Positions 396 to 64,000 of a DNA stretch of 64,000 bases are shown in pieces. The stretch lies in IMG/VR virus record IMGVR_UViG_3300042731_005759, positions 32,001 through 96,000 of that record; one strand, 5' to 3'. Position numbers and translations under genes: made by a program. The notes under the pieces are model-generated. The model saw nothing but the letters and a program-made list of their open reading frames with translations. It ran no database searches and had not been told where the DNA came from. Within the stretch, counting starts at the first letter, position 1. Each line of letters starts with the position of its first letter. The stretch is from a virus.

Positions 396-1625
396 TTAAT
401 TGTTCTTTATTGTTTTTAAAAATTCAACTCGGTCTTTACACACTTTCTTTAAAGAGTAAGTGTCTTTGACTGTTTCATATAATTTTTCACCTAAATCTTC
501 CCTAAGTGAAGGGTTTTCGATTAGTCTTTTCATTTGTTGGAACCATTGTTTATGATTCTTTCTTGTTTGAACTAATAATGAGTTTCCATTTTCTACTCTA
601 TTACCATACTCGAAACTATCAACTAAATCAATTAGATAAGGATTTTCTGCCGTTGCAATAAGAGGTTTTTTATGGAAACCCGCTTCGATAACTTTGAGTT
701 GGGACTTATACCCATTGAAGTCACTTTTTACAAGTGGTGCCAATGATACATCAAAGTAATTGTAATTTGTTGCGTATTTGTTCAAATCTAAAGTCCATCT
801 TCTAACATATGGTTGATTAAATTCACCGTCGTAGGATTCTCTTTTCCATGTCTTTAAAAAGTTTACATACTCAGGTTGTAGTGATTTATAATCGTTAGTG
901 AAAATACTTTCATATTTCGACCACACAGTTTCTTCAGGTCTAATAGGTCTTTCTCTTACTTCCCCCGTTGTTTTGTTATATTCTCTCATATTACCTCTCA
1001 GATCGAAACCACACAAAACAAACTGTACTTTGTCTTTATATTGTTGGTGTATTTGACTAATACCACCTTTCATTAATTCAATATCATATAAATGAGATGA
1101 ACCTCCTAACCAACCAAATCTAACTTTATCAGATTCTATGGTGTTTGGTTTGAATTGACTTTCTTCTTCGTTTACGGCATTAGGGAATACATGAATTCTA
1201 TCATGATTGACTAATTTTTTTAGTGCATCTCTATAAAGTGAAGTTGTACAAGTAATATAATCTGCCAATTTCAACATTTCCGTTCTCTTACCAGCAAGAT
1301 TCTTCTGTTTAAAGGTCTCGTACATAGGATGTCTATGATCTACCCTCCAATAATCATCGGTATCCATGATAACAGTAATACCATTTGATTTTAACCATTT
1401 GATTCTTTTTATATTATCCTCGTGAGATGACTTATGAATAAAAGTGTGGAAGATTACCACGTCATATGTAGAAAAGTATTCATCCTCGTTTGGTACGTTC
1501 AGGTTCAAATCAACATGTACATCAGATGAATGTTTATCACCAATAAATGTAAATGGATCTATGATTCTGAATTTACCTACACCATGTGTGTCCGAGGGTA
1601 TAGCTAATACTTTTACTTTTGACAT
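396..1625 (-). CDS. Glycosyltransferase, GT-B fold (GT4-like)
   Basis: DTDD, ADYITCTT, VFPNAV, FGWLGGSSH, DVSLAPL..FNGYKSQLKVIEAG..P motifs. Confidence 0.85.
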   Translation of the reverse strand: MSKVKVLAIPSDTHGVGKFRIIDPFTFIGDKHSSDVHVDLNLNVPNEDEYFSTYDVVIFHTFIHKSSHEDNIKRIKWLKSNGITVIMDTDDYWRVDHRHPMYETFKQKNLAGKRTEMLKLADYITCTTSLYRDALKKLVNHDRIHVFPNAVNEEESQFKPNTIESDKVRFGWLGGSSHLYDIELMKGGISQIHQQYKDKVQFVLCGFDLRGNMREYNKTTGEVRERPIRPEETVWSKYESIFTNDYKSLQPEYVNFLKTWKRESYDGEFNQPYVRRWTLDLNKYATNYNYFDVSLAPLVKSDFNGYKSQLKVIEAGFHKKPLIATAENPYLIDLVDSFEYGNRVENGNSLLVQTRKNHKQWFQQMKRLIENPSLREDLGEKLYETVKDTYSLKKVCKDRVEFLKTIKNN

Positions 1626-1645
1626 ATATTACTTGTATATATCAA

Positions 1646-5226: not shown

Positions 5227-7950
5227 ATGAATAGTCAGGATATTTTACGAATTTTAGGGTTCAGTTTGGATATTAAGTTGGATAATTCCGAAACTTTTGA
5301 TTACACAATTGCGGAATTTGACACTGATTATGACCAAAAAACCCTTTCTAATACACAACCGTTCAATATCAACAGTTCGGTTGAAAATTATATGGGTGAC
5401 ACCACAAATCAAATTGACACAATTAAACTTTGTGAGATAGATACTGGTTTGGAGAGTTATTCAGGTATAACTTATGTGGTTTCTTTTGAGGATTTTGTTT
5501 CACATTTTAATACTGAAAACTATGATTATGAAAATATTTTATTAAATAATGATGTTTTTACATATACAGGTTTAACACACCCAAACGGTGAACAAGAAAC
5601 TCATTATTTTAAAATATGTGGTTATAATGAACCTATTCCGCCCACACCAACACCTACTGTAACATTAGATCCTGATTTACCAACACCAACTCCATGGCCG
5701 ACATCGACACCTGAGATAAGTCCAAGTCCTACCCCGACATCGACCACGGTACCAAATCCTTTTGGTCCTACACCTACACCAACTTCGACTTTTGACCCTA
5801 ACGCAACACCAAACCCAACTGCAACCTCAACACCTACTCCAACACCTAGTTATGGGTTTAAGGGTCAACAACCGACACCTACACCCACACAAACACAGGA
5901 ATTAGAACCAAGTCCAACCCCAACCATAATACCATCTTCTACACCACTACCCACAGGTACTGCAACACCAACCCCTACTATTATACCTTCGTCTACACCT
6001 TTACCTACTAACACACAAACACCTGAACCTACTAACACACAAACACCTGAACCTACATCCACAGTTGAGTTAACTCCTAATCCAACCAATACAGAAACAC
6101 CAGTACCTACAAGTACGGGAACACCAGAACCTACTAACACAGAGACCCCAATTCCTACTAATACAGAAACACCAGAACCTACTAGTACCGAGACTCCAAT
6201 TCCTACTAACACAGAGACCCCAATTCCTACTAATACAGAAACACCAGAACCTACTAGTACCGAGACTCCAATTCCTACTAACACACAAACACCTGAACCT
6301 ACTAACACACAAACACCTGAACCTACTAACACAGAAACTCCAATACCTACTAGTACGGAAACTCCAATCCCCACTAATACAGAAACACCAGTACCTACAA
6401 GTACGGAAACACCAATTCCAACAAATACGGAAACACCAATACCTACTAACACAGAAACTCCAATACCTACTGATAACCCGACCGCCACTCCGCAGGAAAC
6501 CCCTGTACCGACATCAACACCATTACCAAGTGCAACTCCTCAGTCAACACCTGACCCTACGATAACACCGAACCCAACAGCAACTCCGATACCTACTGAA
6601 ACACAAGAACCTACTGCAACCCCGACGGGAACACCATTACCAACAAGTACTCAAACGCCCGAACCAACTACCACACCGAATCCAACCGCGACAGAAGTAC
6701 CAACGGCAACACCAATGCCAACTTCTACACAAATGCCAACACCCGAACCTACGTCAACAATACCACCAACTTCAACACCACAGGCAACTCCAAATCCTAC
6801 CGCGACTTCAACATATCACCACTGGTTTGTGAAATGTGACGTTGGGGGACCTGGTGATTTTGATATTGTCTTTGATAGATATGAATTTGAAAACTTACAT
6901 GGTATACCAACAGTTTTAGGAACAACACTTACTTTACAAAGTGACCCAACAACATGTTACGTTTATTCAGGTACTACAACATTTATGAATATAACTCACA
7001 CAGTGAATGATATAAACGATGTTGATGTATGTGGATGTCCTACACCTGTTCCGACACAAACACAACAACCGACACCTGAACCAACTGCAACTATACCACC
7101 ACCAACACCACAACCCACAAGTACACCATTACCAACTTCAACACCACAACCTGCGTGGTCACCAAACAATGACATCTTACCTGTCGCGTGGATTGATGCG
7201 TCAGACTCTTCGAATTACCAAAGAAGTGGAACAAGTTTACTTGGGGTGACTGATAAGGCGGGGACATATACAATGACGGTGGGTGGTAATCCACTCACTA
7301 ACTCATCCACTCAAAATGGATTGAATGTATTCGATTTTGATGGTAATAGTGATTTCCTACAAAGTACAACTTATAGGTCGCAAGTATCAAGCGGTAACCA
7401 TTTTGCATTAGGTGTGTTTAGGTTTGAATCAACGAACAACACAAAAAATTCTTTATGGAGTTATGAATACAGTAGTACTACTAATAAAAGGGACTATGCA
7501 ATTAGTGCGGGTGCCACTAATAACACATGGCCAGGTGAGTTGGATTTAGACGGGTTATCTACTAATAGAATTAGTTCTACAATTGGTAACCTACGAACTT
7601 GGGATTTAAAAAGTCTAACAAGAAATCAATATCACATCGTCTCTTGTTGGTTTAACAAAACAGGAAACCAAATAGGTGTTAGGGTAGATGGTTCAAACGC
7701 GTTTACACCTGTTAATGATTACGATAATTCATTACAAACAACCCAAGAATTAAGATTGATGAGAAATAGATCATCCGTGGAGTTAGATGGTAAGATGGGT
7801 GAATTTATAGCTTACGCATCAATGCCAGGTACAAGCGGTACAGATATGACGTATTTAGAGAAGGCAGAGGGGTACTTAGCACACAAATGGGGATTAACAA
7901 GTAGTCTCCCAAGTTCACACCCATATAAGAACATAGAACCAACATTATAA
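5227..7950 (+). CDS. Putative virion fibre or appendage protein with long Pro/Thr stalk and C-terminal lectin-like (ConA/LamG-type) domain
   Basis: About 400 aa of PT repeats. C-terminal AWIDASD...[11 protein letters not shown]...GEFIAY...[10 protein letters not shown] is typical of phage LamG-like domains. Confidence 0.7.
6007..6472 (+). repeat. Coding 24-bp minisatellite (PT[N/S]T[E/Q]TP[I/E/V]) with an exact 72-bp tandem duplication
   Basis: 6130-6201 is identical to 6202-6273; the 8-aa unit repeats throughout. Confidence 0.9.
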
Positions 7951-8008
7951 AATTTACTTTCAGACTAACAATAACTGATGTTTTTACTATTTATAGTTAA
8001 AAGTAAAA

Positions 8009-9037
8009 ATGTCATTAGAGATCTCAGGTTTTTCAACCAATTTAATTGATTGTCAAGGAACATTGTTTGACTCATGTTGTGGGTTCAGTTCAACGTTAGG
8101 AATAAAACCATGGGCATATCGAATTGATGGTCACACAAATGATGATTGTGATTTTTTACTTAAAAGACGAACAGAGAAGGGGTGGACCTTAGATTTTGTT
8201 TTTAACAAAGAAGATAAGGAATGGTCAGAAGGTGGTCCTTTTTATTTTTGGGGTGTTAGAGAGGAAGATGATGAAAGATTATATGCGGATAACAATTTAT
8301 CATTCCGATTTACTGATGATGGTAGAATTCAGTGGAGAGCTCACAGGTATTCGGGATCATGTGTAAATGAAGTTTATTCAGAAGATTTTTATGTCTCATC
8401 AGGTCAAACACCTGTTTTATGTTCAGAGGGTACATCTAAAGATTTTAATATTACAATTGTATTTGATAGAAATCTAAGACTTACTGATTGTAATATTGAG
8501 AATGATGGTAGTTGGAACGATTTAATTACTGGTGAAACTATTACTAACGCGTCTGATGTTGTCCTATCTGGTTCAACAGAATCCTACCAATATATTGAAG
8601 TACTAAATAAAGATTGGAACGATGAAAGATATTCAAGGTTAGGTACATTAAAAATCTATTTAAATGGTTGGCCAATCTACAAATTAGAAGATTGGGAGGA
8701 AGTAATTCCTTCAAGTAGGGGACAACAACCCTTTATCCAATTATGGGGTGGGGGTGCAAGTGGATCTGGTGGTATTCATGTGGGTGATCATAATTTCACT
8801 TTGAAAAGAGTTAAGTATTTTGAACAACCCATGAACGCTTTACAAGTCAAAGACCATTATTTAACACTATCATCACCATATTTTGAGATTGTTGAGTGTG
8901 TTGAACCATGTGAAGAAACATCAATTACTCCGTATAGTGATAACACAATAATTTATGAACAGGATGTTGATGGTGATAACCAAACAACAAATACTGACGC
9001 AGTCCACACAGAAAATGAGGACATATTAATTTTCTAA
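8009..9037 (+). CDS. Putative structural protein, beta-sandwich (LamG-like)
   Basis: WTLDFVF, LKIYLNG, LKRVKYFEQPM pattern; TATTTAT upstream at 7988-7994. Confidence 0.55.
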   Translation: MSLEISGFSTNLIDCQGTLFDSCCGFSSTLGIKPWAYRIDGHTNDDCDFLLKRRTEKGWTLDFVFNKEDKEWSEGGPFYFWGVREEDDERLYADNNLSFRFTDDGRIQWRAHRYSGSCVNEVYSEDFYVSSGQTPVLCSEGTSKDFNITIVFDRNLRLTDCNIENDGSWNDLITGETITNASDVVLSGSTESYQYIEVLNKDWNDERYSRLGTLKIYLNGWPIYKLEDWEEVIPSSRGQQPFIQLWGGGASGSGGIHVGDHNFTLKRVKYFEQPMNALQVKDHYLTLSSPYFEIVECVEPCEETSITPYSDNTIIYEQDVDGDNQTTNTDAVHTENEDILIF

Positions 9038-9050
9038 AATATTTATAAGA

Positions 9051-11105
9051 ATGGCGTTTAAAAAGATATCGGATTTAAATTCAAATTTAACACCAAGTGG
9101 GAGTGGATTAATCCCTATTTCACAAAATGGTGAGACTTTCAGTACAACATTAGACACAATAAAAGGTCAGATTGAAGGTGGTTTAACGGGTTCCTTTGCA
9201 ACAACGTCATCTCTTAATGATTTAGAGTTGGTTGTAAATAGTACAACCTCGTCAGTAGATGAGTTAAATACGTTCACTTCGTCAGTTGGTGGTCGAGTAG
9301 ATTCTCTCGAAACTTTTACAGGTTCTTTAGATGATAGTTTTGCGTCTGATATTGAATTAAGTGATTTACGTGATTATTTTAACAGTTATACATCATCTAA
9401 TAATAATGTAAATACACAACAAAATACAAGATTAGATTCTATTGAGGAAAGACTTAATAACATAGAGACTATATTAAATGAGTGTTGTTTAGGTCCAACT
9501 TCTACTCCACAACCTACTTTTATTCCTACGTCCACACCCGCACCAACACAAAACCCAACATCAACCCCTGCACCAACATTTGAACCGACACCTAACCCTA
9601 CATCTACTCCTATACCAACACAAACACAACAACCGACACCTAACCCGACCGCCACTCCACCACCAAGTGCAACACCACAAGCAACACCCGAACCTACAGC
9701 AACAATATTACCAACATCAACACCTCAGGCAACACCTAATCCAACCGCTACGGAGGCACCAACGAGTACACCTGCACCAACAGCAACTGTAGAACCAACT
9801 CCTAATCCTACTCCAAACCCAACACCTAACCCAACACCTAACCCGACCGCAGAACCAACCCCTAATCCCACACCTATACCAAGTGCAACACCACAAGCAA
9901 CTCCAAATCCAACTGCAACGGAAGGACCAACAAGTACACCAGCACCAAGTGCAACACCTCAGGCAACACCTGAACCTACCGCAACAGAAGATTTACCGCC
10001 CGCAACTCCACAACCAACCGCAACTGTAGAACCAACACCAGTGCCGACATCAACTGTGGGTCCAACGAGTACACCTATACCTACTGCAACACCACAGGCA
10101 ACACCCGAACCTACGTCAACAATACCACCAACTTCAACACCACAGGCAACTCCAAATCCTACTCCGACGAGTACATCTACATTATCCGCAATTAATTTAG
10201 TTTCGAGATTAAATTTGGGGACTTATGAAACAAGAAATTCAACTCTTTCAAACGCAAATTCATTTATTTGTAATAATAACATTTATAACACAACAGTACC
10301 TAACGATTTATATACTTCAGGTAGTCCAACAAATCCACAAACAGGCGATATACTCTATTTAGACGATCAAACCTTAGGTATAAATTATTACGTCAATGAA
10401 GAGTTTTTACATATTAATTTAGATCCAAATAACAACAATTGGAATGTTGTTACTGATTGGAGATGGATTACTACTGACGCAAACGGAATTATGACCGTAA
10501 CACAACTAAGTGCGTGTCCAACACCTAACCCAACAAGTACTTCTATACCAACCGCAACACCACAGGAAACACCAGTACCAACGAGTACACCAGTACCAAC
10601 TGCAACACCAGGATCAACTCCTGTACCGACAGCCACACCAGCACCAAGTGCGACACCTCAGGCAACACCTAATCCTACGGCAACTGAGGGTCCAACATCG
10701 ACTCCTAACCCCACAAATACACCACCTGCAACTCCACAACCAACCGCAACTGTAGAACCAACAAGTACTCCTATACCAACATCAACACCTCAGGCAACAC
10801 CTAATCCTACTGCAACTATACCACCACCGACACCTAACCCAACAATTGCACCCACATCAACACCAGTACCAACTGCAACACCAGGATCAACTCCTGCACC
10901 GACACCAACAGGCACTCCTTCACCAAGTCCAACTGGTACACCTAATGCAACTCCTGAACCAACTGCAACCACACCACCTGCAACTCCACAACCAACAGCA
11001 ACTGTAGGTCCAACGAGTACACCATCACCAACTTCAACACCTGGTTCACCAACACCAACACCTACGTTTGATCAACCTAACACAATATACGTACATGTAC
11101 CTTAA
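9051..11105 (+). CDS. Putative fibre protein: N-terminal anchor and coiled coil, two Pro/Thr stalks flanking a small globular domain
   Basis: MAFKKISDL start typical of fibre proteins, heptad region, PT repeats at about 9495-10180 and 10518-11070. Confidence 0.7.
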   Translation: MAFKKISDLNSNLTPSGSGLIPISQNGETFSTTLDTIKGQIEGGLTGSFATTSSLNDLELVVNSTTSSVDELNTFTSSVGGRVDSLETFTGSLDDSFASDIELSDLRDYFNSYTSSNNNVNTQQNTRLDSIEERLNNIETILNECCLGPTSTPQPTFIPTSTPAPTQNPTSTPAPTFEPTPNPTSTPIPTQTQQPTPNPTATPPPSATPQATPEPTATILPTSTPQATPNPTATEAPTSTPAPTATVEPTPNPTPNPTPNPTPNPTAEPTPNPTPIPSATPQATPNPTATEGPTSTPAPSATPQATPEPTATEDLPPATPQPTATVEPTPVPTSTVGPTSTPIPTATPQATPEPTSTIPPTSTPQATPNPTPTSTSTLSAINLVSRLNLGTYETRNSTLSNANSFICNNNIYNTTVPNDLYTSGSPTNPQTGDILYLDDQTLGINYYVNEEFLHINLDPNNNNWNVVTDWRWITTDANGIMTVTQLSACPTPNPTSTSIPTATPQETPVPTSTPVPTATPGSTPVPTATPAPSATPQATPNPTATEGPTSTPNPTNTPPATPQPTATVEPTSTPIPTSTPQATPNPTATIPPPTPNPTIAPTSTPVPTATPGSTPAPTPTGTPSPSPTGTPNATPEPTATTPPATPQPTATVGPTSTPSPTSTPGSPTPTPTFDQPNTIYVHVP

Positions 11106-11117
11106 ACGATTTGAGAT

Positions 11118-42026: not shown

Positions 42027-42037
42027 AAAAATATAAT

Positions 42038-52469: not shown

Positions 52470-55400
52470 ATGATACAGAAACATCGTATAAGAACAGAAA
52501 TTGGTAAGGATCAAAAGGTAACTGTCGAGTTAAAACAAGACTATGATCTTTTAGAAATTCTTTCACTTAAGTTCACACAAAAAGACATTTACACATCTAT
52601 TTGTGCGGACTATGGTGTTGTTTGTGGTAGAATTACCGCGAATCAAGGATACGGTGTTGCAAACGCCAGAGTATCGATATTCATTCCGTTAGATGATATA
52701 GATGAGGAAGACCCTGTTGTCTCCGCATTATACCCCTACAGATCAACACAAGACACCGATACAGATGGGTACAAGTATAATCTGTTCCCTAAGAGAAAAC
52801 AACATACAGGACATACACCAACAGGAACGTTTCCTGATCAAGAAGATATCTTGACAAGAGAAGAGGTCTTATACGTTTATGAAAAATATTATAAGTACAC
52901 AGTTAAGACTAATGATGCGGGTGATTTTATGATATGGGGAGTACCCACGGGATCACAAACAATTCATGTAGATGTTGATTTGTCGGATATGGGTTGTCAA
53001 TCACTTGTTCCTTATGATTTTATATATGAAGGTGTTTCTGAAGAAAAATTTGAAAACAACTACACTTTTAAAGGTGATCCTGATATAGCAGGACTACCAC
53101 AAACATTGACATTTGAAGAAACAGTTGAAGTTTATCCGTTTTGGGGTAATGAGGATCTATGTGAAATTGGTATTACAAGAACTGATTATGATCTAAGTGA
53201 CCAAGGTATTAGAATAGAACCTTATTCTATTATGATGGGAGGTAGTTTCACTGACTCAGGTAAAGATTCGGTAAGAGTTAGATGTAATGTCGACAATCAA
53301 ATGGGAGAAAAATGTAGTTTAACTTCAGGTGAGGGAGATATTGAGGCGATTAGATTTACAGGTACCTATGAAGAAAATACGGACGGTACACCAAACTATG
53401 AAAGACCAATACTTGAAGCAATACAATTAGACTCACAAATAAATGAAAATGGTAATTTCTTTTTCAGAGTACCCATGAATATGGGGTATTTCATTACGAA
53501 TGAATTTGGAGAGTTAGTAGAAACTAAAAATACTCAAAGAGGTATCCCAACAAGAGGAACGTATAGGTTCAGACTTTCATATCAAAATGACAATGCCGCG
53601 AGAAAACAATATAGGGGTAAGTACCTTGTACCACAAATCAAAGAACATAATTTAGGTAGTGGAACACCTTATATTGACCCTAAAGCGTATGCGTTTTCAA
53701 CCAACTTAGACGATTATCCCGCAAATGCAATGGATGATATTACGGGTATCAATAATAATGGGTTCTCTAATGACATGTTCTACTCTTTTAGATATAATAG
53801 AGTTTACACCGTATCATCGTTTATAAACCAATATTATAACAAATCGTGGGCGGAGAAAGCATTTAGTTTCCTTGTCAGAGACAGGAATGAATCCTTTATT
53901 GGTATTAAAGAAATACAACCATCACAAGAGGAGGATTGTTCAAATAATAATGAGTATTTCCCAATCAATGACGCAGTAAGAAATCATAAATTCAAATTTT
54001 TAATAACAATTATATTAAACTTCCTCGAGAAAATATATTTAAAAATCACACAGGCAGTCTTAGATGTTATTGTAGAATTCCTTTTTGATGCGAGTGACGC
54101 ATTAAACTTCAAGATCTTAGGTTCAAGACCATTAGGCGGCTTAGCGGATAGGATTGCTGGATATGCGAGAGATATACAAAAAGGGACTTCAAGAAAATTA
54201 GGTTTAGTTAATTATCCCGATTGTTATGAATGTAATGTAGATCCCGAATCGGGAGAACAAACTGGTGGTGGGGGATCATATTCGTATGATTTTATTAGTA
54301 TACCCTCAGGTGGTGAGGAAGACGTTATTACAAATAATAACTTAACAGTTACCGCAACTAACGTAGTTGCAACCACAACGTATGATCCTAATGACACTTC
54401 ATCTAATGACGACGGTCAGATGACAATTGCGGGTATTACAGATGAAAGAAATTATATTTTAAAATACATAAAAGTTGCAGAGGTTTTAGATGCAAGTGGA
54501 AATACGATAACACCACCACAATATGGATATGTCGGTGTTGGTTACAGTACACAACATGAAGGAACCAATATAAGTGGAAGTAACGTCACATTTAATTTCC
54601 TTGCATCCACAGTCTATCAAGATATATTAATTGAAAATGGTTATGGTGCAACACCACAACCAGATGTGTTGGCGGGTACGGCTATTGCAAACGCGAATCA
54701 AATGGAGTTTGTTGAATTATATTTTGTTAGTGAAGTGACGACAACCGTCATAACAGGTACGACAGTAGAAAGTGGTTGTGAAAAATACGATACAATATAT
54801 GACCCTGATTATTGGGGAGGTAACGGTGATACCATGAGATTAAGGGCATACACAGGTTCCACTTATCAAGACTTAATAGATAATCCTGATCATTTAAGTT
54901 GGCAAAATAATGCCTATCCCGATATATTTTTGGATGGTACTGAGGATCCGTGTGCTGATACTCTACCCGTGGCAGATATCACAGTAACAATAAGTGCATA
55001 TACTGACGAAACAAGTGGGTGGGATGGTAAAAGAGATAGAAGATGTGTACAAAGGAAATGGGGTACAGATTGTACTGCATCAGGTTATTCGGAGTTTGTT
55101 GATGGTCAATATCATTTAATACCTGCCGCAGGAAAAAACCAACAACTTATAAACGATTACAGTAGAAGAAAATTAGTCGGCAAACTAATGTGTGGTGGAG
55201 TTACCTCATACACTTTCTCAAATAGTTGGTTAAACGGTGCGTTATACTTTTTCCAATTCAGAAGAAGAAGAGGCGGAACTAACGCCAAATACTGCGAAGA
55301 CGTTATTAGAAGAGTTGAGGACGATAATGGAGTACACTATTATTATAGGTCAACACCTTACCATAATGGTAATTTTATTGGTCAGGTGGGTGAAAGATCA

Positions 55401-56237
55401 TACGGTGAAATACTTTTTCCAACAACTATCATGGATTTAGGACCAAGAAATATGTTTATAAAAGAGATATGTGTCGACCCTGAATTGGATGTAAACTGTT
55501 CTGTTTCAAAAAGTATTGGTAGTACATCATATCAAGATATAAATGATTTAATGGAATATATTATTTCATCCAAAGAAGTTAAAGAACAGGGTAGATTACA
55601 AGTAAAAGACCTTTTCGATAGAAGAGGTGGTGGCGCAATTGATGGTGATATTGCACAACTATTAAATATGAACTCACAAATGGGATATTATGGGTATGAT
55701 GATGAAGATCCTGATAGTCCATATGCAACAACGGGACAAACTGTATATGACGGAATAGGACCTGTTGGTATAGATTTCACATTCTCAGAGGACGACGAGG
55801 ATACTGAGATTGTCGAAAAAGATGGTACTCTATTGAGACTTTGTATTAATGCGGCAGGTAATTTAACTGAAACGGCACAGGAAGTTCCTTATTATAGGTG
55901 GGACAGAAAGTCAACATCAGGTTTTGGTCCCGATAGTGGAACATCAGAAACACAAAATTGGGATAGAACCACAATACACACTACTAAGTATCAAGGAGGT
56001 TGGGACTTCAATGGATTGATGGTGGCTGACCCATACAACGGTGCGGGTGGAAACCCTACCGATAACATCAATAGTCATTATTATGATGGTAGTATCTTAC
56101 CACCAATAAGAGATTGTGCGGATAATAATTATGCGTCACAAGAAATACCACTCGGCGGACCTTTCTTCTTCTACTTTGGATTGAGAACAGGAAAATCTTC
56201 GTGGAATAAATTCGTTAAAAACTTTGGTCCGTTATGA
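52470..56237 (+). CDS. Large putative baseplate-associated structural protein
   Basis: N-terminal GR...NA.VSIF and TN..GDF.I.GVP.G (carboxypeptidase-regulatory-like beta domain); Cys-rich; late motif upstream. Confidence 0.6.
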   Translation: MIQKHRIRTEIGKDQKVTVELKQDYDLLEILSLKFTQKDIYTSICADYGVVCGRITANQGYGVANARVSIFIPLDDIDEEDPVVSALYPYRSTQDTDTDGYKYNLFPKRKQHTGHTPTGTFPDQEDILTREEVLYVYEKYYKYTVKTNDAGDFMIWGVPTGSQTIHVDVDLSDMGCQSLVPYDFIYEGVSEEKFENNYTFKGDPDIAGLPQTLTFEETVEVYPFWGNEDLCEIGITRTDYDLSDQGIRIEPYSIMMGGSFTDSGKDSVRVRCNVDNQMGEKCSLTSGEGDIEAIRFTGTYEENTDGTPNYERPILEAIQLDSQINENGNFFFRVPMNMGYFITNEFGELVETKNTQRGIPTRGTYRFRLSYQNDNAARKQYRGKYLVPQIKEHNLGSGTPYIDPKAYAFSTNLDDYPANAMDDITGINNNGFSNDMFYSFRYNRVYTVSSFINQYYNKSWAEKAFSFLVRDRNESFIGIKEIQPSQEEDCSNNNEYFPINDAVRNHKFKFLITIILNFLEKIYLKITQAVLDVIVEFLFDASDALNFKILGSRPLGGLADRIAGYARDIQKGTSRKLGLVNYPDCYECNVDPESGEQTGGGGSYSYDFISIPSGGEEDVITNNNLTVTATNVVATTTYDPNDTSSNDDGQMTIAGITDERNYILKYIKVAEVLDASGNTITPPQYGYVGVGYSTQHEGTNISGSNVTFNFLASTVYQDILIENGYGATPQPDVLAGTAIANANQMEFVELYFVSEVTTTVITGTTVESGCEKYDTIYDPDYWGGNGDTMRLRAYTGSTYQDLIDNPDHLSWQNNAYPDIFLDGTEDPCADTLPVADITVTISAYTDETSGWDGKRDRRCVQRKWGTDCTASGYSEFVDGQYHLIPAAGKNQQLINDYSRRKLVGKLMCGGVTSYTFSNSWLNGALYFFQFRRRRGGTNAKYCEDVIRRVEDDNGVHYYYRSTPYHNGNFIGQVGERSYGEILFPTTIMDLGPRNMFIKEICVDPELDVNCSVSKSIGSTSYQDINDLMEYIISSKEVKEQGRLQVKDLFDRRGGGAIDGDIAQLLNMNSQMGYYGYDDEDPDSPYATTGQTVYDGIGPVGIDFTFSEDDEDTEIVEKDGTLLRLCINAAGNLTETAQEVPYYRWDRKSTSGFGPDSGTSETQNWDRTTIHTTKYQGGWDFNGLMVADPYNGAGGNPTDNINSHYYDGSILPPIRDCADNNYASQEIPLGGPFFFYFGLRTGKSSWNKFVKNFGPL

Positions 56238-57979
56238 TAAAAAAGAAAATATTATCACCGAGTAAAAGATTTAAAAATGCGGAGTCTGAAGACTTAACGT
56301 TACGAATAAATCTTGAAGAGGAAAAGAATTTACTAAGAGAGGGTGATAAGACCATCATCTTAGACATTGCGGAACAATTCAAAAAAGAACGTAATGAGAG
56401 TACCAAATATAGAATTTATGGTAAAATGAATATGGTTTTCAGAAACACGTATAGTGGTACTACAACATATGAACCACTACTAAATAACTTATATGTTATT
56501 GGTGATGGGATTGACGGTGATTTCACAGGATATGTACCATACAACGAATTTGCGTTTATTAGAAACGATTATATTAGACAAGTGTCTTCTCCATCGGGAA
56601 CAACAATGGGTGATTTCTCACCTAATCTGGTTATTACGGGGGACACATCACACAGGACAATAAATGAGATGGATGTTGCGTCAACAAATTGGAACGTATT
56701 TCTTTCCTATGTTCATGATAAGGATAGTACTCACCAAATGAGATATACATTATCAGGTAACACACAATATTCTTTTACTGCGTCTAATGGGATACCTTTT
56801 AGAGTTGAAGAGTTTACAACACATTATGAATTAACGAGTCCTATACCACATAATATGAGTGAAGGGGAATTTGTGATTCTATCAGGTACTTCGATAAGTA
56901 GTGGATCAGAGTCGGACAGAGTTTTTCCAATTGCGTCAACAGGTAATGAAGTATTCAATTCTGAAAAATATGTTATTAATGTTCAGAAATCAACCTTTAC
57001 ATCATCACAAACTTTAAGTGGGGTTGTATTTGGTAAAAGGTGTTTAGATAAAACTAAAATGTCTGAAACTACTTCAGAGTATTATGTGCACAAACATAAG
57101 ATATTAACTAATTCGGACGGTTGTATTGTAGACAGAACAGGGTTTGAAACTCCTGTGTTTGAGATAGAAAGAAAATTACAATATGAGACTGCTGATGCTA
57201 GAAATAACATATACTCTGTTCAAAATAGACCTGAAACCATATTATATCACTTTAAAGATGAAGTAGATATACAAGGTTTAACAAACAATTTAGGATATAC
57301 AGTGACTGATTTGTACGTCACAACATTATTTAAAAATGGGAATGGATATTTTAACTATCCACCGAGATTAGGTTGGAGATTTAATTTCCATAACTCTTGG
57401 GTTGATAACCAATTTGATACGGGGTTTGGTGGATCAGACAGTGGGTTACCATCAACAACTTTCCAAAACAGTGGAGTGACATTTACTCAAGGAACAGAGT
57501 TGACTGTAGGAGACGAATTAGTCGGTGCTTTTGTTGAATATAACAAAGAAGATTTCAAAGAAACAATTCTATCTGAAGCACTACATAAATTCACAATGGA
57601 CTATAACATATTTAATCACTCACAAGTTTCAAATAATGATGGTTCAAGTACAACTAACCCAAAAGGTCTATTTTACCAACCTCACTATAGGGTTAAGTTA
57701 AGACAACTTTCACCTTATATAGAAACGGCAAATACTAATAAAATAGATGGACTCCCTGAAAACTCATTATACGATACCTACAACAAACAATGGAAGTGGA
57801 GAGACCTATATGATCATGGGTATACAGACCCCGATGGTTTTGGTGTGAACCATCCATTTACAAACGGACAACACTACGTCAAATCTGACATAAACTTTTA
57901 TCTGAGAAATGAGGAGACCTTCTTAAATAAAACGGACGGTATATCAAACTTCACAGTAGACAATGATTCTTTATGTTAA
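56234..57979 (+). CDS. Putative structural protein
   Basis: 581 aa, beta-rich, overlaps the upstream gene, in the baseplate operon. Confidence 0.65.
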   Translation: MIKKKILSPSKRFKNAESEDLTLRINLEEEKNLLREGDKTIILDIAEQFKKERNESTKYRIYGKMNMVFRNTYSGTTTYEPLLNNLYVIGDGIDGDFTGYVPYNEFAFIRNDYIRQVSSPSGTTMGDFSPNLVITGDTSHRTINEMDVASTNWNVFLSYVHDKDSTHQMRYTLSGNTQYSFTASNGIPFRVEEFTTHYELTSPIPHNMSEGEFVILSGTSISSGSESDRVFPIASTGNEVFNSEKYVINVQKSTFTSSQTLSGVVFGKRCLDKTKMSETTSEYYVHKHKILTNSDGCIVDRTGFETPVFEIERKLQYETADARNNIYSVQNRPETILYHFKDEVDIQGLTNNLGYTVTDLYVTTLFKNGNGYFNYPPRLGWRFNFHNSWVDNQFDTGFGGSDSGLPSTTFQNSGVTFTQGTELTVGDELVGAFVEYNKEDFKETILSEALHKFTMDYNIFNHSQVSNNDGSSTTNPKGLFYQPHYRVKLRQLSPYIETANTNKIDGLPENSLYDTYNKQWKWRDLYDHGYTDPDGFGVNHPFTNGQHYVKSDINFYLRNEETFLNKTDGISNFTVDNDSLC

Positions 57980-59314
57980 ATGAAACTAAGATTTGATTCA
58001 CAAGACAAAAAATTAATTTTAAATCAACAAGAGTCTTTTAGAACGGACTCGGGTTGGGATGAGAGTATACAATCGTATGAGGATGAATTATTAAGAAGTA
58101 TTATTAATCCTATTGAGAATTATGAAACTAATAGGTATATACACAAACCATATACTTCAAGTGCCGCTTCGACTCCATCCGAATCCGCTGCGGAAGAAGA
58201 AGGTACTGTTACTACCAATACACAGATTAATACCATCGAACAAACAGATATATGGTTCTATTTTTATTTTGTTAAAAATGGGTCATATACGAATGGTTTA
58301 GATTATAAATCCGTTGGAATTTCTCAAACAGATAAACTATTATCAGATCTTAGAAATAGTTTTTTCAGACTTGAATTTTATAAAACTCCCGACGGTGAAC
58401 AACCAAATAGAACAAACAGAAGATTAGTATTCGCGAAGAACTTGTCCCCCGCTGTGGGTGAAAGGGTTAGTGTTACGGGAAAAACAGAGAAATTTTATGT
58501 GCCCGTTTTTATGGGGTCAAGTATGAGAAACAAAGAGAATATGTATCTCTTTTGGTTTCACGATGATACGGTATTAGAAGAAACTACACTAACAGGAGGA
58601 ACATTCTTTATGTCCGCAAAATTTTATAATGCGGTGGATGGATCTAAAATACTTTTTGGTAATAAACCAATTGCAGATTCAAGTACAGTAACACAAGAGA
58701 ATGATTTATACTATAGAGTTGAAATGTCTCGTAATGATGCGGGTGAACCAACATATCATTATGTGGTCACAGAGGAGAATGGAACGTACCCATATTTAGG
58801 GACACGTAAAGGGACGGCGGATAACCCTATTTTATTTTATCAGATGGAAGGAACTCAGGCACCACCTCCAACTGCAAATCCAACACCTGTACCAACAGGT
58901 GGAACACCACAACCAACTCCTGCACCGACACCAGTACCAACACCAGGCCCAACATCAAATAGTCCAACAATAACGTGGTCGGCGGGGACAAATGTAACTG
59001 TAAGTGCAAATGCACCACAGACAATGAATTATGATGATATAAGTGGTACAGTAACAGTAACAAATGGTAGTGTAAATGTTTACCTCCGAAGTTCAAAGGC
59101 GTTCAACTATGATAACGTGTCAAACGCCTCTTTAAGTGTCACAAGTGTTGGTTCATTAAATGTTACTGCGGCATCAGGAGACATGAATAATGATAGTTTA
59201 CCATCTGTGTTAACAATACCACCTGGTACATATAACTACACTTTAGGTGCGGAAATAAGTTTAGATGGTGGACTAACATCAGGTATGGCACAATCAGATA
59301 TATATACACAATAA
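57980..59314 (+). CDS. Putative structural protein with PT linker and appended beta domain
   Basis: Globular N-terminal part, PT linker at about 58858-58965, Ser/Thr/Val-rich C-terminal domain. Confidence 0.65.
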   Translation: MKLRFDSQDKKLILNQQESFRTDSGWDESIQSYEDELLRSIINPIENYETNRYIHKPYTSSAASTPSESAAEEEGTVTTNTQINTIEQTDIWFYFYFVKNGSYTNGLDYKSVGISQTDKLLSDLRNSFFRLEFYKTPDGEQPNRTNRRLVFAKNLSPAVGERVSVTGKTEKFYVPVFMGSSMRNKENMYLFWFHDDTVLEETTLTGGTFFMSAKFYNAVDGSKILFGNKPIADSSTVTQENDLYYRVEMSRNDAGEPTYHYVVTEENGTYPYLGTRKGTADNPILFYQMEGTQAPPPTANPTPVPTGGTPQPTPAPTPVPTPGPTSNSPTITWSAGTNVTVSANAPQTMNYDDISGTVTVTNGSVNVYLRSSKAFNYDNVSNASLSVTSVGSLNVTAASGDMNNDSLPSVLTIPPGTYNYTLGAEISLDGGLTSGMAQSDIYTQ

Positions 59315-59315: not shown

Positions 59316-60230
59316 ATGGAGAAGAACTTTTATAAAATATACAAACCAACAACAGGACTAACTCACAACGTACCTGTATACTTAGTCTCTGAAGCGGATG
59401 AGATGGGTGGTATGGTTGGTTTTGACGGTGATATAGAACAAGTTGAACAGATCTGTAATTTCAATTATCAAATAACTGGTGGAAATACAATAAGAGTTTA
59501 TAATACTGTCAACAGAGATTTATTAAAGGTTATAAGAAGTGAAACATATACTATTGATTGGGGTGATGGAGGGAATGAAGTTATAACAGTTAGTACAGGA
59601 ACTAATCTTTCGTTTAAACAACATACATATTCCTCATCAGGAACATATTTGGTCACTATAACACTACAAACAAATTATATAGCAAAAAGAATACAAAAAA
59701 AGATTACTGTACCCCAAAACACAACAGTCACTAATCCATTCGGTAGTTTCTCAACTACAATGGTATATGAAGGGCAAACAACTGTTACACAAAATTACAT
59801 TAATGATTATGATAATAGTAATGTAACGGGTACAACACAGATCTATTTTGCCGCGATGGGCAGAAGTAGAGTGAGTGAATTAAAAAAATACGGTGAAACA
59901 AACTATCAAAATATTACAACAGGAAGTGATACTGTTGGTAGTTACACTGGATACACTATTGATAATTTGTCCTATAGAGATTATGAGGATGGGACCACAA
60001 CAATTACAGGTTCAACAACAAATTTTGAGATAGAAGACGAGTTCGATAAGATGTTAACAAGGAACGAACATTTCATCGGATTTATAGATGAACCGACCAT
60101 TTATTCTGACGTTTTTGTCGAAAGAGGGAAGCAGGGAGTTTTAGAAATGAATTTAAGGTTAGGTGAAATTGATAATATTGGAGAACTGTCTGTTTATGGA
60201 AACGGATTTTTCCAAGTTAAAAAACAATAA
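59316..60230 (+). CDS. Putative structural protein with PKD (Ig-like) domain
   Basis: YTIDWGDG...HTYSSSGTYLVTITL. Confidence 0.7.
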   Translation: MEKNFYKIYKPTTGLTHNVPVYLVSEADEMGGMVGFDGDIEQVEQICNFNYQITGGNTIRVYNTVNRDLLKVIRSETYTIDWGDGGNEVITVSTGTNLSFKQHTYSSSGTYLVTITLQTNYIAKRIQKKITVPQNTTVTNPFGSFSTTMVYEGQTTVTQNYINDYDNSNVTGTTQIYFAAMGRSRVSELKKYGETNYQNITTGSDTVGSYTGYTIDNLSYRDYEDGTTTITGSTTNFEIEDEFDKMLTRNEHFIGFIDEPTIYSDVFVERGKQGVLEMNLRLGEIDNIGELSVYGNGFFQVKKQ

Positions 60231-60256: not shown

Positions 60257-61174
60257 ATGGCAGTAGGTAGTTATGGAACGGTAAGACCCGCAGATGTGTC
60301 TCCGTCAGACATAGAAATTTTTTATCACTATGTTTCTGGTAGGACATCAACGGCACCCGTTCAGTTTAAAAAATTAGATTCAGAGGACGTTTTAACTCCT
60401 ATCTACCATGGTGATAGAAATGATACTCTTGAGACTGGTGTTTCTACAACAGAATTAATCGGTGGACTTTACAATTTAAAATTAGATTCTGCGGATTTTG
60501 ACGATTTAGGTGTGTATACATTACATATTAGACCTAAACAAATTAGAACATCAATAACCGATTGTGGTATTCTAGCTTCATTACCATCGGTAAGAGGAAT
60601 AATAATCGATTTGAGTAACGTACCATCTGATGATAGAAATAAATTTACCCCACAAGGATTAGTGGGATATAGAATTGAGTATATCAACAACGACGGTACT
60701 AAACTTCCTAATTTCTATAGGGTAGTTACCTCATCTTTTTACTGTACACCAATTACATCAAACTTGACTAATTCAAGTCAGAAGGCAATCAGATATCAAT
60801 ATACTGATCAGTCTACTAATTTGTTGTTTTTGACAGTAACACCATCGTCAGCACCATCAAACAGACCGAATACGGTACCGTTTATTGGTGAACCATCACA
60901 GAACATAGTTCTATCAAATACATTTTTCAATCCTACAACTTTAGAAGTTGAAATGGTTGAACATGATGATACTACATTGGCTTACGCATTGTATGGTAAC
61001 CAATCTAAATCAGTATCTGATGGTATTTACACAGTTTACGACGGTGCAAACAATATCTACAAACAATTTAACTTGTTTGAGATCAAAGATGAGTTCAACG
61101 AAACACTATTTGAGGTTAGAGAGGAAAGGGACGAAATCGATACAACTAAAGATTTTGATGATATCACTCAATAA
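60257..61174 (+). CDS. Putative structural protein
   Basis: 305 aa; TATTTAT upstream at 60237-60243. Confidence 0.65.
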   Translation: MAVGSYGTVRPADVSPSDIEIFYHYVSGRTSTAPVQFKKLDSEDVLTPIYHGDRNDTLETGVSTTELIGGLYNLKLDSADFDDLGVYTLHIRPKQIRTSITDCGILASLPSVRGIIIDLSNVPSDDRNKFTPQGLVGYRIEYINNDGTKLPNFYRVVTSSFYCTPITSNLTNSSQKAIRYQYTDQSTNLLFLTVTPSSAPSNRPNTVPFIGEPSQNIVLSNTFFNPTTLEVEMVEHDDTTLAYALYGNQSKSVSDGIYTVYDGANNIYKQFNLFEIKDEFNETLFEVREERDEIDTTKDFDDITQ

Positions 61175-64000
61175 TGGCAAAAAGAAAAGTTCCAAGTCAG
61201 GCGGCAAGTGGAAGGGAGACCTTTAACGACAACTTGATCGGTAATCAGATTACTGATGGATCAAGCCAATTGACTGCGACGAACTTTTCGGTTGAAAAGA
61301 CATTACCACAGAGAGATTCCAAAAAATTTAAGACAACACCATTTTCAGAATATCTAACTTTAGATGATCTAAATGAAGAAAATGATGCACCAACTACCAC
61401 ATCATCAACAAGTGATGATGATAAAACGGTAAAATTCAATGCATCTAAAGAAAATGGTAGTAAATCACTTTATGGTTCTTTAAGAGAGAGAATTTCCATC
61501 TCAGTAAAAAGAATTATAAATAAATTTCCCGCGGGTTTTTACGTAGACAAGGACACTCCAATCTCTTCAACAGAGTACACGGCAGAAAACATTGTATACA
61601 ATTCCAAAACCTATGAAACAACATTAAAACTTGAAAATTCTAAGATTTTTAACCCACATGATGTTGTTTTAGTAAAACCCAAAAGTAATACTCAACCCGA
61701 GGTTGAGAATACATTTAAAAACTTCTATGATCACTATAAAAAATATACATTAGTTATTGGTGAACAGACCTATAACATTGTAAGTTTCACAGAAGTAGAC
61801 AGTACTGGTTTCATTACATTAAAAGTTAAAGGAAATCCTTTTAATGGAAATAGTACTTACACTGAAAGTTTTTTAATAAGACCTGTAGATTCTGTCGTCG
61901 AAGAATTTTTCAAAAATTTAGATGATTTAGAATCCATTTTATTAAACCGAGAGTCGACACCTAAGTACACGTCGAAATTTGTCGTTCCACAAGATTCTTT
62001 AGATGGTTCAAAAACTGAAAACAAAACGTTAAGGTTTACTTGGCCATTATTTAAGGATGGGTGGAACATAAAAATCACTGGTAACTCTTATGTTGAATAC
62101 CTAAGAAGACTCAGTGATGTTGGTCAAGAAATAGACAACTACAAATCAAATTTAATTGTTAGATTTTTAACTACTGCCTCTCTCAATGAATTTGATACTC
62201 CAGATCAAAGAATCGCGTCTATTTTCAAACTATACGGACAAAGCTTCGACTCTATCAAAAAGTTTATTGATAATGTTTCTTACATGAGAAATGTAAGTTA
62301 CGATGGTATCAATAACGTTCCTGATGTTCTCCTTAAAAACTTATCAAACACATTAGGTTTAACCGATGTTAAACTTTTTGATGATAAGTCTTTGGAGGAT
62401 ATTCTCTATTCGAGAATTGATAGTCAGTACGAAGGTGTTGATCTTGGTAAAAATGTGATTGAGGCGGAAACAGAGTTCTATAGACGAGTCTTAGTAAACT
62501 TAGCACACATATATAAATCGAAAGGTACAAGAAACGCAATTGAGTTTTTCCTTAGATTTTTAGGTGCACCTGAACCTTTAATTAAAATTGAGGAATATAC
62601 CTACAAATATGATGAGGTTAGAAAGAACGTAAGTGATATCGATAGTGATATTTACGATCTTATTCAGGACGAAAAGACGTTTACTATTGCAGAATTACAA
62701 ACCACGGGATTTACTTACTTAAATACTGTTACAACAGGACTTACGTCATATAAAGAGACTGAGTTCCCAATTAATGTTGAAAGTAGTGGTAGTACTAAGT
62801 ACGGTGATGTACAACAAATTGTAAGTGAGACTAATGATACCTTTTTTGAAAAAGGTGCGGGTTGGTATGATATAACTTTACAACACAGATCATCATTAGA
62901 GTTAGATACTGAAAATTCAGATTTACTATCCACACCAAAAGTTATAAAAACAAAAAATAAAGACTATACCTACGGGGAGGATTACTTTGACTTATTTAGA
63001 CAGTTTGATGGTTTAGATTATGGTTATGAATTACATAATACTGTCGATAACAATAAAACAGAATTATTAGGTGATTTAGATTCAAAAACACTAAATAGAA
63101 AAAATATACAAGTTTATATTTCTTCTGCACAAGCATTAGATCATGATGTTTATAGAAAATCAAGAGAATTAGGTGTAAGTTTTGGGACAAATACTTTAGA
63201 ACCACAAACAGGTTTTACGTTCGCGGAATATATAGATCAAGTTTTAAACGAACAAATTAGAAATTCACATGTAGTAAAACATCAAAAAAGTTATATACAA
63301 CTTGAAGACATTTATCTAAGTTATTTAGATAAAGTATCGGACCCATATAGTAATCCAACAGTAAGTGAGTTCATTAATAAGATCAGTCCATATTGGGTAC
63401 AACTTATTGAACAATTTATTCCTGCGACAACATTATGGACGGGTGGTAATATTATTGAGAATCATAATTTAGGTAGGTCTAAATACGAATATAAAAAACC
63501 ATGTAGGATAACAGAATTTACTGAAAATCTATTCCCTGATTTCGAATTGGCAATTGAAGAGGATTTAGAAACAGTCTTAGGTGACCCCGATATTTTTAGG
63601 GGACTAACTGTTGTGAGCGGTGTAACATATAATTTACATATAGATTTTAATGGGACAACATATACTTCAAACAGTCTGTTAACACTAAGTGGTGAAACAC
63701 AGAGTATAAATCAAGTAAATGTTTGTAGTAATAATTTTACACATGCGGGATTATTCGAACCATATCCTGTAAATTCAGAGTGTTCAACTCTACTTAGTTC
63801 AGACTTTAATGGGGTTCCTTTTGATAAAACAATACACTTACCCCTTACTTGTGATTTTAAGTGTTATTTAAAACCACAAAGAGAAATATTAGAGTGTCTT
63901 TGGGTTGATAAAGTACAGGATATTATAGACAACCAAATCAATAGTCAATACTATAGAAAAACTTATTACTCAAATGGTCAAACTAATATATCTAATCACG
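61174..64000 (+). CDS. Partial CDS running off the window; baseplate wedge / P2 gpI (T4 gp7)-like protein
   Basis: ATG in a TAATG overlap (MAKRKVPSQ...); frame open where checked, including the window end; NVPD.LL..L...LG and IYKSKGTRNAIEFFLRFLG motifs. Confidence 0.7.
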   Translation, partial: MAKRKVPSQAASGRETFNDNLIGNQITDGSSQLTATNFSVEKTLPQRDSKKFKTTPFSEYLTLDDLNEENDAPTTTSSTSDDDKTVKFNASKENGSKSLYGSLRERISISVKRIINKFPAGFYVDKDTPISSTEYTAENIVYNSKTYETTLKLENSKIFNPHDVVLVKPKSNTQPEVENTFKNFYDHYKKYTLVIGEQTYNIVSFTEVDSTGFITLKVKGNPFNGNSTYTESFLIRPVDSVVEEFFKNLDDLESILLNRESTPKYTSKFVVPQDSLDGSKTENKTLRFTWPLFKDGWNIKITGNSYVEYLRRLSDVGQEIDNYKSNLIVRFLTTASLNEFDTPDQRIASIFKLYGQSFDSIKKFIDNVSYMRNVSYDGINNVPDVLLKNLSNTLGLTDVKLFDDKSLEDILYSRIDSQYEGVDLGKNVIEAETEFYRRVLVNLAHIYKSKGTRNAIEFFLRFLGAPEPLIKIEEYTYKYDEVRKNVSDIDSDIYDLIQDEKTFTIAELQTTGFTYLNTVTTGLTSYKETEFPINVESSGSTKYGDVQQIVSETNDTFFEKGAGWYDITLQHRSSLELDTENSDLLSTPKVIKTKNKDYTYGEDYFDLFRQFDGLDYGYELHNTVDNNKTELLGDLDSKTLNRKNIQVYISSAQALDHDVYRKSRELGVSFGTNTLEPQTGFTFAEYIDQVLNEQIRNSHVVKHQKSYIQLEDIYLSYLDKVSDPYSNPTVSEFINKISPYWVQLIEQFIPATTLWTGGNIIENHNLGRSKYEYKKPCRITEFTENLFPDFELAIEEDLETVLGDPDIFRGLTVVSGVTYNLHIDFNGTTYTSNSLLTLSGETQSINQVNVCSNNFTHAGLFEPYPVNSECSTLLSSDFNGVPFDKTIHLPLTCDFKCYLKPQREILECLWVDKVQDIIDNQINSQYYRKTYYSNGQTNISNH

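Follow-up and report, generated by a model that had tools for sequence, protein, structure and literature searches.

In the tail, baseplate, fibre and capsid proteins of the phage represented by the IMG/VR virus record IMGVR_UViG_3300042731_005759, and in those of hundreds of its relatives, the tetrapeptide [ST]GxT (serine or threonine, glycine, any residue, threonine) occurs 3 to 20 times as often as expected by chance. Something probably reads this motif, most plausibly a sugar-adding enzyme of the phage, and the best reading is that it serves as a sequon for a phage-encoded modification, probably O-glycosylation, a reading whose prospects we would call even. The stretch analysed, referred to here as the window, comprises 64,000 nucleotides (bases 32001-96000 of the 176,087-bp record), and a preliminary description of it had proposed the motif as the recognition signal of an enzyme that decorates the particle surface. 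That proposal holds insofar as the motif behaves like a sequon in the relatives, and has to be tempered insofar as part of the signal is ordinary.

Sites in the window

Across the 44 main open reading frames (ORFs) of the window there are 51 [ST]GxT sites. Expected counts for the window sets were obtained from 1000 within-protein shuffles, the window proteins being divided into 15 tail/baseplate proteins, the four genes of a Pro/Thr-linker block (5227-13325) and 25 others. The tail/baseplate set has 38 sites vs 9.9±3.1 in the shuffles (3.85×), a count reached by 0 of the 1000 shuffles and still improbable (P = 2e-5) against a generic baseline of 1.8×. The linker block has 9 sites vs 6.7 expected, and the remaining 25 proteins have 4 vs 3.7, namely TGNT in the DNA polymerase, two Walker-A TGKT sequences and TGVT in the exonuclease. 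The preliminary description, counting by eye, had arrived at about 42 structural and about 4 replication or metabolic sites, with a composition-based expectation of about 10 for the structural set, and these figures, its claim of an excess over composition alone and every peptide that it quoted from the sheath, the 581-amino-acid (aa) and the 304-aa proteins were borne out by the translations and shuffles.

SGxT (3.0×) and TGxT (2.55×) are each enriched on their own in the studied phage, and no enrichment of [ST]GxS, NGxT, DGxT, AGxT, [ST]AxT or [ST]NxT was found in its proteins. Pro/Thr repeat patterns aside, SGxT and TGxT are the strongest of 3314 patterns of the form a-b-x-c, which rules out chance or a post hoc choice of motif. 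Local heterogeneity of composition was ruled out as well, windows of 10-100 residues leaving the excess unexplained, and so was the inflation of counts by paralogous repeats: self-paralogy detected by BLAST is confined to the Pro/Thr linkers and fibre head domains, in agreement, as far as BLAST reaches, with the earlier argument that shared ancestry is not the cause, which had started from proteins taken to be of unrelated fold. Nine proteins in this genome reach P<0.01 for the motif, vs 1-3 in each control phage. The features concerned are as follows, with site counts given against their expectation.

396-1625, minus strand: putative GT4-like (GT-B, RfaG-like) glycosyltransferase; 0 sites of its own
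5227-13325, plus strand: Pro/Thr-linker virion proteins of 907, 684 and 735 aa; long TPxP/PTxT tracts, no [ST]GxT excess of their own
8009-9037, plus strand: 342-aa late protein within the linker block; 3 sites vs 0.31; TATTTAT upstream
22618-25437, plus strand: tail sheath; Pfam Phage_sheath_1 and sheath_1C at residues 654-927; 6 sites vs 1.5
27219-29006, plus strand: 595-aa tail/baseplate-cluster protein; 2 sites vs 0.56
34087-39693, plus strand: 1868-aa baseplate-cluster protein; 5 sites vs 1.3
50578-52410, plus strand: gp6-like baseplate wedge; phrog_219 and phrog_6 matches; 0 sites (negative case)
52470-56237, plus strand: 1255-aa baseplate protein in the gp7 position; 5 sites vs 1.33, orthologs up to 13 vs 1.5-1.8
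56234-57979, plus strand: 581-aa baseplate protein; 5 sites vs 0.75
57980-59314, plus strand: 444-aa protein; 3 sites vs 0.78, orthologs up to 9 vs 1.7, and 4-5 vs 0.2
59316-60230, plus strand: 304-aa protein; 4 sites (residues 13, 171, 211, 231) vs 0.78
60257-61174, plus strand: 305-aa protein; 1 site (near-negative), all orthologs 0-1 vs 0.3
61174-64000, plus strand: first part of a 2485-aa baseplate/fibre protein; 14 sites in all vs 2.85 (P = 2e-6), 6 of them in the window

The sheath sites, SGTT130, SGKT146, SGNT179, TGWT231, TGFT275 and SGHT641 (nucleotides 23005, 23053, 23152, 23308, 23440 and 24538), all lie outside the conserved C-terminal core, and those of the 581-aa protein are at residues 74, 121, 135, 174 and 413 (nucleotides 56453, 56594, 56636, 56753 and 57470). 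Orthologs of the 304-aa protein have up to 13 sites in 320 aa, none of them in the conserved C-terminal 70 residues, those of the 2485-aa protein have up to 20 vs 2.8, and orthologs of the 342-aa protein that adjoin the glycosyltransferase island described below have 3-5 vs 0.3. Pro/Thr linkers occur in many virion genes (window 5227-13325, genome 93174-123434; TPxP 101 vs 13 expected) and are possibly a second, independent class of candidate O-glycan acceptors, one with no [ST]GxT excess of its own.

Of the tail, the window encodes, besides the T4-type sheath, a tube protein resembling gp19, a baseplate hub and wedge proteins of the gp25 and gp6 types. It also encodes a family-B DNA polymerase, an SNF2 helicase, SSB, an exonuclease, ribonucleotide reductase and proteins resembling UvsX, DnaB and QueC. 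The genes for the terminase, the portal and a major capsid protein of gp23 type are found on the same record outside the window. Since a relative, the IMG/VR record G001, is 310,691 bp long at an estimated completeness of 93%, the studied record represents about half a genome. Based on gene content and size, this ~310-kb clade of aquatic T4-related jumbo phages is probably that of the 'moraphages', aquatic jumbo phages with Bacteroidota as predicted hosts, genomes of ~300 kb, a T4-like structural core, a ClpA-like ATPase, PhoH, dUTPase, a sigma factor and several core glycosyltransferases (PMC12619734). All of these gene types are present in the studied phage, the likeness being one of gene content and size.

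Relatives, controls and selection on the motif

The 581-aa protein has more than 1000 homologs, and in a family of 54 of them (51-82% identity) there are 510 sites vs 36.9 expected (13.8×), spread over 39 alignment columns vs 8-23 for control motifs, with up to 15 sites vs 0.7 in single orthologs of ~590 aa. The control motifs themselves gave 0.6-1.9× in this family, except for [ST]GT (3.5×) and [ST]AxT (4.65×), the latter suggesting that Ala is partly tolerated at +1. A broader set of five baseplate/fibre families, the orthologs of the window proteins starting at 52470, 56234, 57980, 59316 and 61174 across 80 IMG/VR loci, yielded 1674 sites vs 273 expected (6.1×), and the specificity of the motif was determined in this set. 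TGxT is at 5.8× and SGxT at 6.6×, SGxS at 2.5× and TGxS at 1.0×; GxT preceded by N, D, A or G is at about 1× (NGxT 0.93×), and [ST]GxG is at 0.7×. Only Gly is effective at +1 (6.1×; Ala 1.5×), spacing variants reach 1.7-2.5×, and x is free apart from Pro (0.08×). At -1, Asp (0.06×) and Glu (0.11×) are rare and L, I and Y favoured, F, I and Y are favoured at +4, Thr is enriched 2.4× at -2, and charged residues, Lys/Arg as well as acidic ones, are depleted around the motif. This is the logic of a sequon: Ser and Thr equivalent at position 0, Gly and Thr obligatory, and x free with the exclusion of Pro.

The same proteins are enriched in G001, i.e., the sheath (11 vs 1.6), the orthologs of the 1868-aa and 1568-aa proteins (9 and 6 vs 1.5) and of the 581-aa, 444-aa and 304-aa proteins (11, 5 and 9 vs 0.6, 0.3 and 1.0), together with two fibre-region proteins (14 vs 1.2 and 12 vs 1.9) and the capsid protein (4 vs 0.55), and its portal, terminase, gp6-like wedge, DNA polymerase and ribonucleotide reductase have 0-1 sites. 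Capsid proteins carry 3-4 sites vs 0.3-0.55, and the capsid sites are internal (residues 202, 259 and 295). The gp6-like wedge has 0 sites in more than 60 orthologous loci (1 in two), with ~0.45 expected in each, and 0 sites were found in the tail tube, hub, portal, terminase and ribonucleotide reductase proteins. Orthologs of the wedge and of the 305-aa protein never exceed one site, perhaps because the positions are buried or the motif is avoided. Over 60 loci the five families covary in motif density (rho 0.3-0.8), to which common descent contributes. The motif-bearing proteins differ from lineage to lineage: in the distant IMG/VR relative G010 the 581-aa homolog has 0 sites, the sheath 11 vs 1.3 and a neighbouring 410-aa protein 6 vs 1.1.

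The controls were six complete phage genomes together with phi92 and 200 kb of the huge phage LR756508, and their [ST]GxT ratios were 1.35× (T4), 1.54× (P-TIM40), 1.76× (HTVC008M), 1.73× (Flavobacterium phage immuto), 0.99× (Microcystis phage Mel-JY01), 1.47× (Bacillus phage SP-15), 1.46× (phi92) and 1.35× (LR756508). In the first seven of these pooled, without LR756508, all combinations of S/T/D-G-x-S/T/V/I are at about 1.3-1.75×, which looks like an ordinary turn-plus-strand propensity. Because control phages show this 1.0-1.8× excess, part of the window signal must be generic, but the earlier view of the excess as real and specific to virion proteins is supported: it exceeds what is found in the virion proteins of phages that have no such glycosyltransferase, the 0.99-1.76× of the controls equalling neither the 3.85× of the window nor the 6-14× of the clade. 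In the Pelagibacter phage HTVC008M, three adjacent large proteins (33435-43923) have 26 sites vs 8 expected, a case that may indicate wider use of the motif.

Selection on the motif acts on protein, since the corresponding degenerate DNA pattern occurs in the five families 1674 times in the coding frame vs 19 and 35 times in the other two. Its Ser codons are of both the TCN and AGY kinds; with several codons in use and the pattern confined to the coding frame, a DNA-level motif was ruled out. Genome-wide, the position-0 codons ACT, ACC and TCT are under-used before GGN, and ACA, ACG, TCA and AGT preferred, suggesting avoidance of CTGG or a context effect.

The five sites of the 581-aa protein are kept at 0.75-0.94 in relatives of ~77% identity, vs 0.45 for random three-position windows, and at the kept sites Ser and Thr interchange at position 0, x varies, and Gly and Thr are fixed. 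Conservation differs among the proteins: in the 2485-aa protein 10 of 14 sites are conserved at >=0.67 vs a background of 0.29, and in the 1255-aa protein one of five is positionally conserved and the other four turn over. Relatives have gained the motif where the studied phage has DKDS, SDRV, SSQT, SETT or QGTE, with Gly in place of K, D, S or E, and the backbone has no need of Gly at such positions, because those residues are tolerated there. The sheaths of the studied phage, G001 and G010 together have 28 sites in 22 alignment columns, 0 of the 28 in the conserved C-terminal core, with 11 sites each in G001 and G010 and 0-3 in five control sheaths. As these alignments show, the motif has repeatedly arisen at new columns, and only within variable outer domains.

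An AlphaFold model of the 581-aa protein (predicted local distance difference test, pLDDT, 82), for which a Foldseek search against the PDB gave no match, places sites 174 and 413 where two strands meet in a tight turn, and the remaining sites in loops or at the ends of strands. Of the family's motif columns, 26 were mapped on it, and they fall in loops (38%), at strand edges (46%), in strands (8%) and in helices (8%), a distribution close to background; no single structural element thus accounts for the motif.

Glycosyltransferases and a candidate reader

The ORF at 396-1625 appears to encode a divergent GT-B/GT4-like protein, and it is the best candidate for a reader of the motif. Its Pfam matches, Glyco_transf_4 (residues 96-154) and Glyco_trans_1_4 (residues 285-371), have E-values of 2e-3 and 3e-3, below the cut-offs, and it has no match among PDB sequences; the homologs detected by tblastn are annotated as GT-B glycosyltransferases in phi92-like phages, its Atlas clusters are named RfaG glycosyltransferase, and its Atlas neighbours carry Glycos_transf_1. 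Relatives of the protein are present in G001, G002 and G005 (55-58% identity) and in a divergent lineage (40-46%; IMG/VR loci L223-L229), of which baseplate clusters from four contigs (G006-G009) show 5.4-6.9× in the same protein set. In G006-G008, which are near G009, the enrichment is 5.6-6.9×, and these contigs carry the GT4-like loci L231, L227 and L229, on separate or partial stretches. A more distant protein (32% identity) is found in LR756501, a 735-kb and otherwise unrelated uncultured huge phage, where a 200-kb region (460001-660000) has the motif at 2.95×, with proteins at 12 vs 0.93, 8 vs 0.71 and 10 vs 1.39 and a tail fibre at 14 vs 3.06. [ST]GxS is enriched in that region too (2.3×).

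Altogether, the GT4-like gene was found in five of the five motif-enriched records searched (G001, G002, G005, G009 and LR756501), and no homolog was found in seven baseline phages searched (motif at 1.0-1.8×); phi92, a further control, has only a distant one. It is the only glycosyltransferase tested that matches the enrichment pattern. As readers, the GT7+LamG enzymes were rejected on account of their absence from the motif-rich G002, an Anp1-like glycosyltransferase for its absence from G001, G002 and G005, and a GT2 and a 356-aa GT-B enzyme for their absence from LR756501. The co-occurrence speaks for the earlier choice of this gene as the candidate enzyme, but what links it to the enrichment is a correlation only, seen across mostly related genomes.

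The genome has eight glycosyltransferase-like genes as well as an epimerase, a methyltransferase and a radical SAM enzyme. The GT4-like gene belongs to a conserved minus-strand island (genome 26799-33625; window 152-1625) with dUTPase, PhoH, the probable GT-B enzyme of 356 aa, the GT2 and, starting directly at the stop of the GT2 gene, a gene that weakly matches sigma-70 region 2. A second glycan cluster, downstream of the fibre genes and outside the window (genome 164800-175381), encodes the Anp1-like glycosyltransferase, the methyltransferase, a GT2-type glycosyltransferase (GT2_4), the epimerase/dehydratase, the radical SAM enzyme and a pair of GT7 (beta4GalT-like) paralogs that both carry a fused LamG/ConA-like domain. 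GT7 is a mainly eukaryotic family, and the best solved relatives of the phage enzymes are beta4GalT7 and beta4GalT1 (E 7e-31).

In 21 IMG/VR loci the GT4-like gene is flanked mostly by non-virion genes. TATTTAT precedes the ATG by 11-12 nucleotides (sometimes 20-27) in 37 of 150 ORFs, genome-wide and in window 5190-60243, mostly those of structural proteins (terminase, portal, baseplate, fibres), and TATAAATA lies upstream of three ORFs, one of which also has TATTTAT, so that 39 ORFs have either motif; the GT4-like gene has neither. The QueC-like gene (window 49344-50057), which has ribonucleotide reductase on one side and the baseplate genes on the other, hints at DNA modified with 7-deazaguanine, which could be a different client of some of the phage modification enzymes.

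Readings of the motif and known systems

The sequon reading is favoured because of the sharp specificity, the equivalence of Ser and Thr, the exclusion of Pro at x and the repeated gain and turnover of sites, and because the sites lie in exposed virion domains only, none in internal parts or enzymes, and covary across the lineage. Under it, [ST]GxT following an uncharged, usually hydrophobic residue would be a short linear motif under protein-level selection, located in the putative outward-facing parts of the virion: the sheath insertion domains, major capsid protein, peripheral baseplate proteins and fibres. A soluble phage-encoded enzyme, acting in the host cytoplasm on virion proteins that are freshly synthesised or folded, would recognise it in loops and at the edges of strands and modify the position-0 Ser or Thr on its hydroxyl, most plausibly with a sugar, with Gly at +1 giving access and Thr at +3 acting as the recognition residue. 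Other phage glycosyltransferases (the 356-aa GT-B enzyme, several of GT2 type and the two GT7+LamG enzymes) could then extend the glycan into a coat. The sequences themselves establish the statistics, specificity, conservation and turnover of the motif, its distribution over proteins and lineages and the presence of the enzymes; that a modification exists, that it is a glycan, the acceptor residue and the responsible enzyme are all inferred. With eight glycosyltransferase-like genes present, cytoplasmic O-glycosylation is the most economical mechanism, and our tentative proposal, one to which we give somewhat less than an even chance, is of an undescribed system in which a GT-B enzyme reads hydrophobic-[S/T]-G-x-T, GT7 and other enzymes extend the glycan over capsid, sheath, baseplate and fibres, and its density is tuned by gain and loss of sequons, as in animal viruses with N-x-S/T.

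Literature searches found no description of the motif or of phage sequons. If the sequon reading is correct, no acceptor signal for the decoration of tailed-phage virions would have been defined by sequence before this one, and the lineage that carries it has more than 1000 sequenced relatives in lakes and oceans; phage glycan shields would become predictable from sequence, the retention of many glycosyltransferases as core genes would be explained, and a new pair of enzyme and tag would be available for cytoplasmic protein glycoengineering. Should the motif prove to be purely structural, it would still be unusual in evolution, and in need of explanation, for one lineage to select a tetrapeptide 20-fold.

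Several observations weigh against a sequon read by the GT4-like enzyme. The generic 1.0-1.8× excess occurs in phages that have no GT4-like gene, so some sites must be ordinary turns, and HTVC008M, likewise with no homolog, has one protein at 11 vs 2.2; model sites 174 and 413 occupy tight hairpin turns, where a motif of structural origin would be expected. The glycosyltransferase correlation is confounded by descent, all of the records but LR756501 belonging to one super-lineage, and phi92 has distant GT4-like homologs with the motif only at baseline, which makes remote homology to this protein uninformative. In addition, the GT4-like gene, with no late-type TATTTAT upstream, stands in a non-late block, and its product could act on DNA, the host surface or another target.

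The turns lead directly to an account in which nothing is attached and hydrophobic-[ST]-G-x-T merely caps loops or beta-hairpins, Gly sitting in the turn and the hydroxyl side chains capping the backbone, and so, in heavy use by this clade, stiffens exposed, fast-evolving beta-rich domains. We regard this as unlikely but deserving of real weight, since the 1.3-1.75× of [STD]-G-x-[STVI] in seven control phages, the position of the two sites exactly at strand-turn-strand junctions, the beta-strand character of the flanks (hydrophobic at -1 and +4, Thr at -2, +5 and +7) and the exclusion of Pro at x, which would suit a tight turn too, are all in its favour. It fits poorly with the classical turn formers N-G and D-G, which are not enriched (0.9-1.2×), with the depletion of [ST]-G-x-[VI] (0.5-0.8×), with Gly arising where relatives tolerate K, D, S or E, and with motif columns distributed over loops, strand edges and helices like the background; moreover, the motif is missing from the gp6-like wedge, beta-rich though it is, and from the enzymes of these phages, and a 20-fold excess in one clade vs 1-1.8× elsewhere calls for a lineage-specific cause.

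Two further accounts keep a function for the motif itself. A reader other than a glycosyltransferase, whether for phosphorylation, acylation, nucleotidylation or the docking of a decoration or assembly factor, seems to us improbable: the evidence shows a selected motif and leaves its chemistry unspecified, and the interchange of Ser and Thr at position 0 would suit any hydroxyl-directed enzyme, but the annotated ORFs revealed neither a kinase nor any other enzyme that modifies proteins, glycosyltransferases are numerous and form a core set, and four residues are too few for specific non-covalent docking. That many copies of [ST]-G-x-T form anion-binding nests, through which the virion binds phosphate-rich polymers on cells or particles, we consider very improbable. 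Loops of [ST]-G-x-T resemble the phosphate-binding fingerprint of flavodoxins, T/S-x-T-G-x-T, and the 2.4× enrichment of Thr at -2 and the depletion of charged residues, acidic ones included, around the motif would accord with such nests; however, Lys and Arg, which would help to bind anions, are depleted too, the motif columns on the 581-aa model gave no sign of a common loop geometry, and virions offer no precedent for what is a speculative idea.

Among known systems, the sequon reading finds a first parallel in the proteoglycan linkage, in which Ser in acidic-S-G-x-G is xylosylated and beta4GalT7 then acts. Ser, an obligatory Gly and a free x are common to both, and the phage encodes its two GT7 enzymes related to beta4GalT7/beta4GalT1; however, it has Thr and not Gly at +3 ([ST]GxG 0.7×), acidic flanks are depleted in it, not required, no GT14-type xylosyltransferase was seen in the phage, and GT7 is absent from the motif-rich G002. 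The Bacteroidota O-glycosylation system also has a Ser/Thr sequon, and the predicted hosts of the clade are Bacteroidota (PMC12619734). Its sequon, D-(S/T)-(A/I/L/V/M/T), differs from the phage motif, as the preliminary description had recognised: Asp at -1 is at only 0.06× over the 1674 phage sites. The Bacteroidota system is, moreover, periplasmic, whereas phage proteins assemble in the cytoplasm.

Closer in setting are the mycobacteriophages, whose virions are glycosylated by their own glycosyltransferases (Freeman et al. 2023, as summarised in PMC12619734). According to that summary, phage genes are responsible, and the glycans are carried on structural proteins made in the cytoplasm and possibly act as a shield; the studied phage likewise encodes glycosyltransferases (GT4-like, GT2, the probable GT-B of 356 aa, Anp1-like, GT2_4 and two GT7+LamG). 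The summary places the mycobacteriophage glycans at the C-termini of capsid and tail-tube subunits, whereas the candidate sites here are internal, with up to 15 per protein in a sharp tetrapeptide that has no mycobacteriophage counterpart, on sheath, capsid, baseplate and fibres, none in the tube and those of the capsid protein at residues 202, 259 and 295; in addition, modification has been measured in mycobacteriophages, whereas in the studied phage it is predicted. The other of the two closest precedents is chlorovirus PBCV-1, whose capsid protein Vp54 is glycosylated at the virus-specific sequon N-T-x-T (PMC9614988). PBCV-1 glycans are N-linked to Asn in a eukaryotic virus, while the phage motif has Ser or Thr at position 0, which would imply O-linkage if anything, and an obligatory Gly at +1, with N-G-x-T at 0.93×. 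Nevertheless, both viruses would share a short, non-canonical, virus-specific sequon in which x is free and Thr is fixed two or three residues downstream, one Vp54 site being NTGT, and in PBCV-1 the glycosyltransferases are virus-encoded and cytoplasmic (PMC9614988), as is proposed here for the phage.

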